A stretch of 64,000 nt of DNA from contig CAZOQA010000004.1 of NCBI GenBank assembly GCA_964581775.1, forward strand, positions 3,786 to 67,785. The letters are read 5' to 3'. Source of the stretch: an uncultured Thermoplasmatales archaeon (GTDB taxonomy: Archaea; Thermoplasmatota; SW-10-69-26). Below the pieces are notes generated by a model. The model saw only the letters and a list, made by a program, of their open reading frames with translations. It searched no databases and was not told where the DNA came from. Positions within the stretch are counted from its first letter, which is position 1; every line of letters starts with the position of its first letter. Positions 62,537-64,000 of this stretch are shown here, piece after piece. The position numbers were made by a program, and so were the translations under genes.

Positions 62537-64000
62537 ATGGACATCCAGCGCATCTGGAACGCGTTGACGACCGGGGAACGCCTCGTGCTTGCAGCCTCGG
62601 GGCTCGTCGCCGTGCTCCTCGTCGTCGCCGGCGCCGTGCTCGTGGCCGGCACCCCCTTCCAACCCGCGCAAACCGACGTGGAAGGCGGCGAGGTCGTGGA
62701 CAGCGACGGGGACGGGCTAAGCGACGCGGAGGAGCTTTTGCTCTACGGCACCGATCCCCAAGTCGAGGACACCAGCGGCGACGGCTTGCCCGACGGGTGG
62801 GCCGCCGAGAACATGCGCGTGAACCCCGAGACGGGCCTGCCCTCCCCGGACCCCGCGCGCGCCACCGCGGACGAAGACCCCAGCGGGAGCGGCCTGACGA
62901 ACATGGAAGAGTACCGCCTGGGCACGGACCCATGGCGCCAAGACACCAGCGGGGACGGGTTCCACGACGGATGGCTCAACGCCAGCGGCCTGGACCCCAC
63001 CGAACCGCACGACCCCACCTTCTCCTGCAGCGCCGATGGCATGACGCTTCAAGAGAAATGGGACCACGGGCTCGAAGCGTGCGCCGAGGACAGCGACCAG
63101 GACGGCCTCACCGATCGCGAAGAGCTCGACGGCCACGCCACGCTTGGCACCCGCACGCTCACCTTCGAGCCCACCGACCCCGCCAGCTCCTCCACCGCCG
63201 GCAGCGGCCTGCCCGACGGGTTCGCCGTGTACCACGGGCTGGACCCGCACGACGCGAACGTGGGCCGCGTCGACCACAGCGGGGACGGCATGACGGCCGC
63301 GCAGGAAGCCCGATGGAGCCAGGACCGCTTCGACGACGTGCGCACCGCCATCGTGGAAGGCCTCGACTTGACGGACCCCGACACCAGCGACAACGGGATC
63401 CCCGACGCCTGGGCCATCCGGCACGGTCTGGACCCCCTGGACGCGGGCATCGCGGACGAGGACCCCAGCGGAAGCGGCCTCACGAACCTCGAAGAGTACC
63501 AGTGGGGCACCGACCCCAACGAGGCCGACACGAGCGGGAACGGCCTCACGGACGGGGAGGAGGTCCAAGGGTGGACGATCACCGTGGACGGGCAAGAGCG
63601 CCACGTGAGCTCGAACCCCCTGCTCGTGGACTCCAGCGGGGACGGCATGACCGACTACGAAGCCAAACACGGCGAGGTCACCATCGACGGGGAACCCGTC
63701 ACGTTCCCCCCCGTGGACCCCATGCTGCCCGACACGGACGGGGACGGGCTCACCGACTACGACGAGATCACGGTCACGTTCGGAGACAACGACAAACGGT
63801 TGGACCCCACCCTATCGGACACGGCCGGCAGCGGGATGCTCGACGGGGAGGAGCTCGAGTACTGGCAGATGCGCGAAGCCGAAGCCGCGGACGCCTGGCC
63901 CGAGCACCTGGACCCCCCCACGCACGGGGACTGCCAAGACGAGGCCACCGCCGCCATCGAAGCCCAGGACCCCGCCGCGCTCGGGCCCGGCGGCGATTTG
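62537..64000 (+). CDS. N-terminally anchored protein with about 13 thrombospondin type 3-like Ca-binding repeats (partial; continues beyond the window)
   Basis: This ORF is not in the supplied track because no stop occurs before the window end. ATG at 62537 lies 1 nt after the upstream TGA, and a GGAGGA SD lies at 62525-62530. I translated all 488 codons by hand and found no in-frame stop. The product begins MDIQRIWNALTTGERLVLAASGLVAVLLVVAGAVLVAG. Repeats include DSDGDGLSDAEE, DTSGDGLPDGW, DSDQDGLTDREE and DTDGDGLTDYDE. Confidence 0.85.
   Translation, partial: MDIQRIWNALTTGERLVLAASGLVAVLLVVAGAVLVAGTPFQPAQTDVEGGEVVDSDGDGLSDAEELLLYGTDPQVEDTSGDGLPDGWAAENMRVNPETGLPSPDPARATADEDPSGSGLTNMEEYRLGTDPWRQDTSGDGFHDGWLNASGLDPTEPHDPTFSCSADGMTLQEKWDHGLEACAEDSDQDGLTDREELDGHATLGTRTLTFEPTDPASSSTAGSGLPDGFAVYHGLDPHDANVGRVDHSGDGMTAAQEARWSQDRFDDVRTAIVEGLDLTDPDTSDNGIPDAWAIRHGLDPLDAGIADEDPSGSGLTNLEEYQWGTDPNEADTSGNGLTDGEEVQGWTITVDGQERHVSSNPLLVDSSGDGMTDYEAKHGEVTIDGEPVTFPPVDPMLPDTDGDGLTDYDEITVTFGDNDKRLDPTLSDTAGSGMLDGEELEYWQMREAEAADAWPEHLDPPTHGDCQDEATAAIEAQDPAALGPGGDL

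Follow-up and report, generated by a model that had tools for sequence, protein, structure and literature searches.

In Pseudomonas aeruginosa, the genes PA2875, PA2874, and tgpA are co-transcribed, tgpA being essential and PA2875 dispensable (PMC3507681). In oral Actinobacteria, the Esr system comprises a filament of repeated immunoglobulin (Ig)-like domains, MoxR, a von Willebrand factor A (vWA) protein, and a transglutaminase, which helps to retain the filament on the cell (bioRxiv 10.64898/2026.09.08.750141), and the bifidobacterial PFNA cluster similarly contains an FN3 protein, MoxR, DUF58, and a transglutaminase (PMC8430577). Thrombospondin type 3 (TSP3) genes of Marine Group II archaea (Poseidoniales) have been interpreted as adhesion factors (PMC6461757). 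A full-text literature search returned DUF4129 only in a plant-pathogen effector paper and in a passing mention, and nothing on a DUF4129-DUF4350 module. The gene considered here, g5, begins near the 3′ end of a 64,000-nucleotide stretch of an uncultured Thermoplasmatales archaeon (hereafter the window, contig C4:3786-67785, from a 2.6-Mb assembly of 119 contigs with a genome GC content of 68%). It is the fifth of at least eight translationally coupled genes and, by domain matches and gene order, the lead gene of a DUF4129-DUF4350-DUF58 membrane module within an operon of giant surface proteins. With moderate confidence, g5 is proposed to act as a calcium-stabilised envelope scaffold or adhesin base, which would be coupled through its cytoplasmic tails to DUF58 and to a MoxR ATPase encoded in trans.

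The ATG at position 62537 of the plus strand opens a frame that is free of stops through base 64000, the last of the window (488 codons), and extension of the contig carries it to a total of 2028 codons (C4:66322-72408, equal to L009:322-6408, with a window-equivalent end at 68623), the window covering 24% of the protein (codons 1-488). The frame at 62537 is thus the 5′ quarter of a real gene, and the claims made for it in an earlier sequence-only reading, namely an unlisted gene with a GGAGGA Shine-Dalgarno site and a strong C/G bias in the third codon position, agree with the orthologues, Pfam matches, substitution rates, and contig extension. The ratio of nonsynonymous to synonymous substitution rates (dN/dS) against an orthologue of 79% identity comes to 0.19 over codons 1-488 and to 0.31 over full-length g5; only this pair was relied on, the values against orthologues of 61% and 43% identity (0.58 and 0.80) being uninformative because a third-position GC (GC3) of 0.93 caps the observable synonymous change. 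GC by codon position in the sense frame is 0.72/0.48/0.91, typical for genes of this genome, and no frameshift is apparent, as the frame continues past the window and its product can be aligned over the full length with orthologues of 2027-2044 aa. The parts of g5 and its start region, with the transmembrane (TM) helices and the macroglobulin (MG)-type domains described below, are as follows.

62525..62530, plus strand: Shine-Dalgarno-like GGAGGA, read from the sequence, 6 nt 5′ of the g5 ATG
62537..64000, plus strand: g5 codons 1-488 (open frame, Pfam, orthologues, GC3 0.91, dN/dS 0.19)
62537..62647, plus strand: predicted cytoplasmic N-tail (aa 1-15) and first TM helix, TM1 (aa 16-37) (hydropathy, conservation)
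62699..63856, plus strand: 13 TSP3-like loops (aa 55-440) (loop pattern, shuffles, Pfam, repeat model)
63977..64000, plus strand, continuing to C4:69771: start of the family-specific middle region (aa 481-1150)
C4:69949-71961, beyond the window: about seven MG-type Ig domains (aa ~1210-1880)
C4:71983-72057, beyond the window: second TM helix, TM2 (aa 1888-1912)
C4:72175-72363, beyond the window: predicted cytoplasmic DUF4129 bundle (aa 1952-2014)

The protein encoded by g5 is very acidic and poor in lysine (D+E 18.6%, K 0.6%), and hydropathy gives two TM helices at residues 16-37 and 1888-1912 (first peak at aa 12-44). The sequence-only reading had described a TSP3-repeat protein anchored at its N-terminus; the TSP3 loops and the N-terminal TM helix both stand, but this helix is not the sole anchor, since TM2 and a cytoplasmic DUF4129 domain follow, and the protein also contains a middle region particular to its family and about seven Ig domains of MG type. 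On full-length g5, Pfam matches TSP3_bac, three stretches of Big_3_5, and a C-terminal DUF4129 at residues 1952-2014 (PF13559; 25.0 bits, the cut-off being 24.8, and 30.2 bits when the genome was scanned), with DUF4129 scoring higher in the g5 orthologues and in a paralogue. The segment after TM1 is acidic and the one after TM2 Arg-rich, a pattern expected of a protein with both ends inside the cell (N-in, C-in) and about 1850 residues of ectodomain looped between the two TM helices. Among eight orthologues, the two cytoplasmic tails are the best-conserved parts, with 8 of 15 N-tail positions (53%) and 32% of the C-tail invariant, and the Ig stalk is the least conserved (14%); the C-terminal soluble DUF4129 tail measures 116 residues. 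The conserved N-tail speaks for retention of the N-terminal helix as an anchor, against its cleavage as a signal peptide, and the conservation of both tails likewise suggests that they have partners. A class III (pilin-like) signal peptide was also considered for g5 and set aside, the N-terminus having no G/A-hydrophobic cleavage motif and only a conserved LTTGER.

The loop pattern occurs exactly 13 times in residues 1-488, in line with the approximate count made from the window before, and 19 times up to residue 1007, while shuffling the full sequence with its composition preserved gives 0.56 loops on average and at most 4. Pfam TSP3_bac (PF18884) passes its cut-off of 25 with 55.2 bits for residues 1-488 and 31.9 bits for full g5. 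The repeats are of TSP3 type, as had been suggested, whereas the likeness to bacterial OmpA linkers suggested at the same time holds at the level of the repeat only. The canonical DxDxDG is present in only four to five loops, the others being mostly of a DxSG[DSN]G variant. With a hidden Markov model (HMM) built from clean repeats, the loops at residues 55, 185, 399, and 647 stand out, the loop at 336 does so more weakly, and nine further loop matches lie near or below zero bits. NCBIfam gives sub-threshold, repeat-driven matches only (CglD, Amuc_1099, and MtsD). The acidic TSP3-type loops of g5 are presumed to bind calcium.

The C-terminal part of the protein (aa 1151-2028) was modelled with AlphaFold2 (AF2) from 22 family members at a mean predicted local distance difference test (pLDDT) score of 84, and in the model about seven Ig-like domains form an all-beta array, a long helix spans TM2, and a helical bundle corresponds to DUF4129. 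In Foldseek, the array matches MG domains of CD109, A2ML1, C3, and the Escherichia coli alpha-2-macroglobulin (ECAM) with E about 1e-20, at the level of single domains only (TM-score 0.13-0.15, root-mean-square deviation (rmsd) about 59 Å), and relatives match Pfam MG2 and MG4. The middle region (aa 481-1150) contains six more TSP3-like loops and 14 of the 18 Cys residues of g5, most of these Cys being conserved. The orthologue alignment shows invariant Cys and Trp in this region, and conserved examples are WWFGSNP and a CxxC at 759-762. It has no Pfam match; an AF2 model of aa 441-1160 has a mean pLDDT of 62, with one part of the region (aa ~650-960) at 80-90, and Foldseek against the PDB found no significant fold match for the region. 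A sequence search of the PDB with full g5 likewise returned nothing. These roughly 670 residues may form a new extracellular domain.

Among 5.8 billion proteins searched, full-length orthologues of g5 were found at 79, 61, 60, 51, 49, 46, and 43% identity (2027-2080 aa), and the order g3-g4-g5-DUF4350-DUF58-g8-g9 is kept at the loci of 79, 61, and 43% identity; homologues of g5 do accompany the genes for giant proteins in other genomes. With a profile of the middle region, the family is detected in each of the 20 genomes sampled from the same class, frequently as two to three paralogues per genome, and elsewhere in the phylum the profile gives weak, repeat-level matches only. Peptide patterns of the TSP3-like loops taken from eight orthologues retrieved about 10 family loci and otherwise mostly unrelated TSP3 proteins (Verrucomicrobiota, Kiritimatiellia, and others). 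The genome of origin itself carries a paralogue on contig C13, a TSP3/MG/DUF4129 protein of 2167 aa with 26% identity over the full length, which lies in a cluster (C13:28469-39003, equal to L019:8469-19003) with DUF4350, MoxR, DUF58, a 203-aa open reading frame (ORF), and a CARDB protein, and two more giant Ig/CARDB proteins are located upstream of it. The order DUF4129-DUF4350-(MoxR)-DUF58 recurs in about 25 independent loci. Three distant relatives (P0064, P0111, and P0120; some distant relatives are source-labelled Thermoplasmatota or Euryarchaeota) have Transglut_core on the N-terminal side of their TSP3 block, and the g5 family is therefore a giant archaeal version of TgpA-like proteins. 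In g5, the TSP3 block begins 18 residues past TM1 and the segment that holds Transglut_core in the relatives is absent; g5 is, in effect, a TgpA-like protein that lost, or never had, its transglutaminase core.

Within the operon, g5 follows four co-directional, coupled genes for giant surface proteins, and its placement as fifth member is thereby confirmed. It is not the last member: the genes for DUF4350, DUF58, and a 1157-aa membrane protein continue the series through overlaps of 4 nt each (g5-g6, g6-g7, and g7-g8), and, rather than ending the operon, g5 opens a conserved membrane module. The upstream junctions consist of ATGA at 38310, TTGA at 46331, GTGA at 58744, and then a 1-nt gap between the g4 stop (TGA 62533-62535) and the g5 ATG, and a TATA-like box lies 5′ of g1. 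The genes are listed below, g1 to g4 together occupying 36643..62535 on the plus strand.

g1, within 36643..62535, plus strand: 556 aa, PKD
g2, within 36643..62535, plus strand: about 2674 aa, fn3
g3, within 36643..62535, plus strand: about 4140 aa, CARDB/PKD
g4, within 36643..62535, plus strand: 1263 aa, CARDB
g6, C4:72405-73394: DUF4350, GTGA overlap with g5
g7, C4:73391-74611: DUF58 (51.1 bits), ATGA overlap with g6
g8, C4:74608-78081: membrane protein, 1157 aa, GTGA overlap with g7
g9, C4:78158-79459: secreted protein, 433 aa, 76 nt past g8

A MoxR gene is part of this arrangement in about half of the family. Among some 25 family loci with readable flanks, MoxR is present in about 13, between DUF4350 and DUF58 and once after DUF58, and absent from about 12. 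No match to AAA_3 (MoxR) was found on contig C4 or at the orthologous loci. In a tree of the giant proteins, the g5 clade is strongly supported, and all five of its members with readable flanks are without MoxR (L009, L107, L022, L114, and L127), the locus of a further member (L115) ending before the MoxR position. The genome of origin (G000) encodes seven DUF58 and seven MoxR genes that make up six adjacent pairs and leave one orphan of each: the orphan DUF58 is that of the g5 cluster, and the orphan MoxR lies at C12:17592-18596 (L135:6592-7596) between the genes for an ATP-dependent DNA ligase and enolase, with no DUF58 or vWA partner. The same pattern of one orphan each is seen in G002, G003, G008, and G010, while G006 and G007 have MoxR in every giant cluster and no orphans, and a stand-alone MoxR thus occurs in five of five genomes with a MoxR-less giant cluster versus none of the two others. 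A single clade (99/94) unites the orphan MoxRs of G000-G004 and G010; it sits in an unresolved group with the MoxRs of giant clusters and apart from most MoxRs of small clusters, and the ligase-MoxR synteny is kept in G001-G004. The closest relatives of the MoxR-less giant protein of G008 belong to certain clusters, and it is precisely with the MoxRs of these clusters that the orphan MoxR of G008 groups. On the basis of the one-to-one orphan counts and the MoxR tree, we infer that the ATPase was relocated and would serve the g5 cluster in trans, a correlation drawn from seven genomes. Such bookkeeping of orphans in genomes with MoxR-less clusters gives a testable hypothesis of an ATPase partner that works in trans.

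For the scaffold or adhesin-base role, a mechanism can be outlined in which g5 would be co-transcribed with the four giant surface proteins that bear sortase-type C-terminal tails, and in which its ectodomain, made up of about 19 TSP3-type loops, the Cys/Trp-rich middle region, and the stalk of about seven MG-type Ig domains, would be stiffened by calcium. The N-tail and the DUF4129 bundle would face the cytoplasm and serve as a handle for the membrane-tethered DUF58 protein, which, together with the MoxR AAA+ ATPase encoded elsewhere, would assemble or remodel the surface complex. In a wider form of this proposal, which is speculative and rather doubtful as a whole, the DUF4129-DUF4350-DUF58 module with MoxR in cis or relocated would be a dedicated, class-specific system for envelope anchoring that, with AAA+ assistance, puts up calcium-stabilised surface proteins of multi-megadalton size and fixes them in place, and g5 would be its catalytically silent, TgpA-derived base plate, looped out of the membrane between its two anchors.

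Several observations weigh against the proposed role. The Pfam score of DUF4129 in g5 is borderline, and most of the loops have Ser or Ala at position 3 and thus deviate from the canonical DxDxDG, which leaves calcium binding uncertain. The DUF58 proteins of both giant clusters (L009:7391-8611 and L019:17175-18395) and their relatives keep an NWKASA motif and have D-H-R or D-G-R at the DxSxS site of the vWA metal ion-dependent adhesion site (MIDAS), which makes classical metal-dependent ligand binding doubtful, and the classical vWA-MoxR mechanism may not apply. The idea of MoxR in trans depends on counts from seven genomes, of which several are incomplete, and on a MoxR tree that contains a polytomy, and the orphan MoxR of G010 does not co-cluster with the nearest relatives of its giant protein. 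To our knowledge, no function has been described for DUF4129 or DUF4350 in any organism.

If g5 were instead a free-standing adhesin that binds particles, cells, or polymers, DUF4350 and DUF58 would be unrelated passengers. This agrees with the adhesion function assigned to TSP3 genes in Poseidoniales (PMC6461757), with an ectodomain that evolves faster than the tails, as is usual in exposed binding surfaces, and with the adhesion/cohesion proteins CglD and MtsD among the sub-threshold NCBIfam matches. It accounts poorly for the 4-nt start/stop overlaps with DUF4350 and DUF58, which are kept in the orthologues, for the recurrence of the module order across about 25 independent loci, and for cytoplasmic tails that are the most conserved parts and that a pure adhesin would not need, and a free-standing adhesin is accordingly regarded as unlikely. 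A similarly unlikely explanation is that g5 is the surface sensor of a MoxR-vWA signalling pathway resembling Esr or PFNA, with a filament that would detect an epibiont, a virus, or a surface and a DUF4129 tail that would relay the signal to DUF58 and MoxR. The conserved tails would suit a sensor, as would the combination of repeated Ig-like filament, MoxR, vWA protein, and transglutaminase in Esr (bioRxiv 10.64898/2026.09.08.750141) and of FN3 protein, MoxR, DUF58, and transglutaminase in PFNA (PMC8430577). Yet Pfam (E<=0.01) showed neither a kinase or phosphatase nor an FHA, beta-propeller, or effector domain in g1-g14, PADLOC gave no match on the cluster, the DUF58 protein lacks the MIDAS motif, and the cluster sits among structural-looking giant proteins.

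Far less probable is an enzymatic role, either as a protease trap of the alpha-2-macroglobulin type or as a cryptic transglutaminase or peptidase, even though the MG arrays of alpha-2-macroglobulin, C3, and CD109 are the best structural matches of the C-terminal half and the distant relatives carry Transglut_core. This explanation is largely refuted by missing motifs: the 2028 residues of g5 contain no CxEQ thioester motif, the AF2 model of aa 1151-2028 shows no helical domain resembling a thioester-containing domain, no bait-region domain is present, and Transglut_core has no match in g5 at Pfam E<=0.01, while the MG resemblance holds per domain only. A hidden transglutaminase or peptidase fold in the middle region is likewise unsupported, the Foldseek search of that region having returned no significant match. 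Finally, that g5 is a chance open frame in GC-rich DNA and an antisense ORF the real gene, a notion encouraged by the long ORFs that 70% GC DNA gives on both strands and by one antisense ORF that is open in every orthologue, can practically be dismissed in view of three Pfam families within one frame, full-length orthologues down to 43% identity with a dN/dS of 0.19-0.31, a codon-position GC that is gene-like in the sense frame and atypical in the antisense frames, and a second antisense ORF that is broken in the orthologues.

The two minus-strand ORFs at issue are shadows, as the sequence-only reading had held. GC3 alone fails to separate the sense frame from one of the antisense frames, and the patterns over the three codon positions and the stops in orthologues were used.

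62717..63670, minus strand: shadow ORF, not a gene (317 codons; GC by codon position 0.91/0.50/0.70, a non-coding pattern)
63049..63648, minus strand: shadow ORF, not a gene (GC by codon position 0.49/0.71/0.93, GC1 below GC2; one to four stops interrupt the frame in three orthologues)

In none of the orthologues, down to 43% protein identity, is the ORF at 62717-63670 interrupted, but this is an effect of composition: its first codon position lies opposite the third position of the sense frame (GC 0.91), which makes stops rare. Its conserved openness is a caution that openness is not coding evidence in high-GC genomes. In annotation, g5, a gene of more than 6 kb, would be lost or supplanted by antisense shadow ORFs.

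Among the neighbouring proteins, g1-g4 each have a signal peptide and a C-terminal tail of a Pro-motif, a TM helix, and Arg-Arg, whereas the C-terminus of g5 lacks such an archaeosortase (PGF-CTERM-like) tripartite tail. The genome also contains an exosortase/archaeosortase-family gene at C5:16999-17616 (L134; PF09721, 35.5 bits against a cut-off of 25.7), and its product is a candidate for the processing of these tails in g1-g4 and in other surface proteins. At the other end of the cluster, five tandem paralogues of 880-950 aa lie 3′ of g9 (contig C4:79642-93795), at the following positions.

L009:13642-16323: tandem paralogue
L010:2433-5156: tandem paralogue
L010:5238-8096: tandem paralogue
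L010:8245-10884: tandem paralogue
L010:11012-13795: tandem paralogue

They share a signal peptide ending in ...TMPxMATHNS and a C-terminal Cys motif (C.GLWS.Q.G ... YGECLDLS), and all five are without a match in Pfam and NCBIfam. The stretch covered at the orthologous locus of 61% identity (L022) includes at least one gene of this kind, and the locus of 43% identity has a MazE/PemK toxin-antitoxin pair (L021:23292-24112) in place of the array.

DUF4129, DUF4350, and DUF58 are widespread in bacteria and archaea and almost unpublished; control searches gave matches to DUF4129, DUF58, and MoxR in Haloferax volcanii as well. This archaeal class has an extreme version of their module, in which the ectodomain of the DUF4129 protein has grown to about 1850 residues and the protein is firmly tied to giant surface proteins, and this points to a role of the module at the cell envelope. 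If the module does organise the envelope or adhesion, it would bear on how surfaces are built by archaea that are probably wall-less and whose proteome looks salt-adapted.

Compared with known systems, the array of about seven beta-sandwich domains in g5 is of the type found in the MG proteins alpha-2-macroglobulin, complement C3, CD109, and ECAM, but g5 has no thioester domain, CxEQ, or bait region, and the global arrangement is not shared (TM-score about 0.14). Similarly, the tandem acidic loops of the D-x-D-x-D-G-x-x-D type are shared with bacterial TSP3 proteins (PF18884, including CglD and MtsD of Myxococcus and the OmpA linkers) and with eukaryotic thrombospondins, although most g5 loops are of the DxSG[DSN]G variant. 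In contrast to these proteins, g5 is archaeal and, by its predicted topology, double-anchored, and it has neither the vWA domain of CglD, the OmpA domain of the OmpA-linker proteins, nor the L-lectin-like C-terminal domain of thrombospondin.

A closer likeness is to TgpA (PA2873), a membrane protein with a polytopic DUF3488 domain whose large extracytoplasmic part is followed by a TM helix and by DUF4129 at the C-terminus; PA2874 is a DUF58 protein and PA2875 a MoxR ATPase. Like TgpA, g5 has a large ectodomain followed by a TM helix and then a C-terminal DUF4129, and a DUF58 gene lies nearby, two genes downstream and linked through overlapping stop and start codons. The differences are that g5 has no transglutaminase core, that its ectodomain of about 1850 aa is composed of TSP3 loops, a region of no matched fold, and MG domains, and that a single N-terminal TM helix takes the place of the polytopic DUF3488 domain. 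In addition, g5 comes first in its module, a DUF4350 gene is present, and MoxR is absent in cis, unlike in PA2875-PA2874-tgpA. The g5 cluster also resembles Esr and PFNA, in both of which a long surface protein built from repeats of Ig or FN3 domains is combined with MoxR, a vWA or DUF58 protein, and a membrane protein of the transglutaminase family. It differs from both in that no kinase, phosphatase, FHA protein, or beta-propeller head is found in the g5 cluster, in that MoxR is encoded outside it, and in that the Ig filament and the TgpA-like anchor are joined in g5 as one polypeptide.

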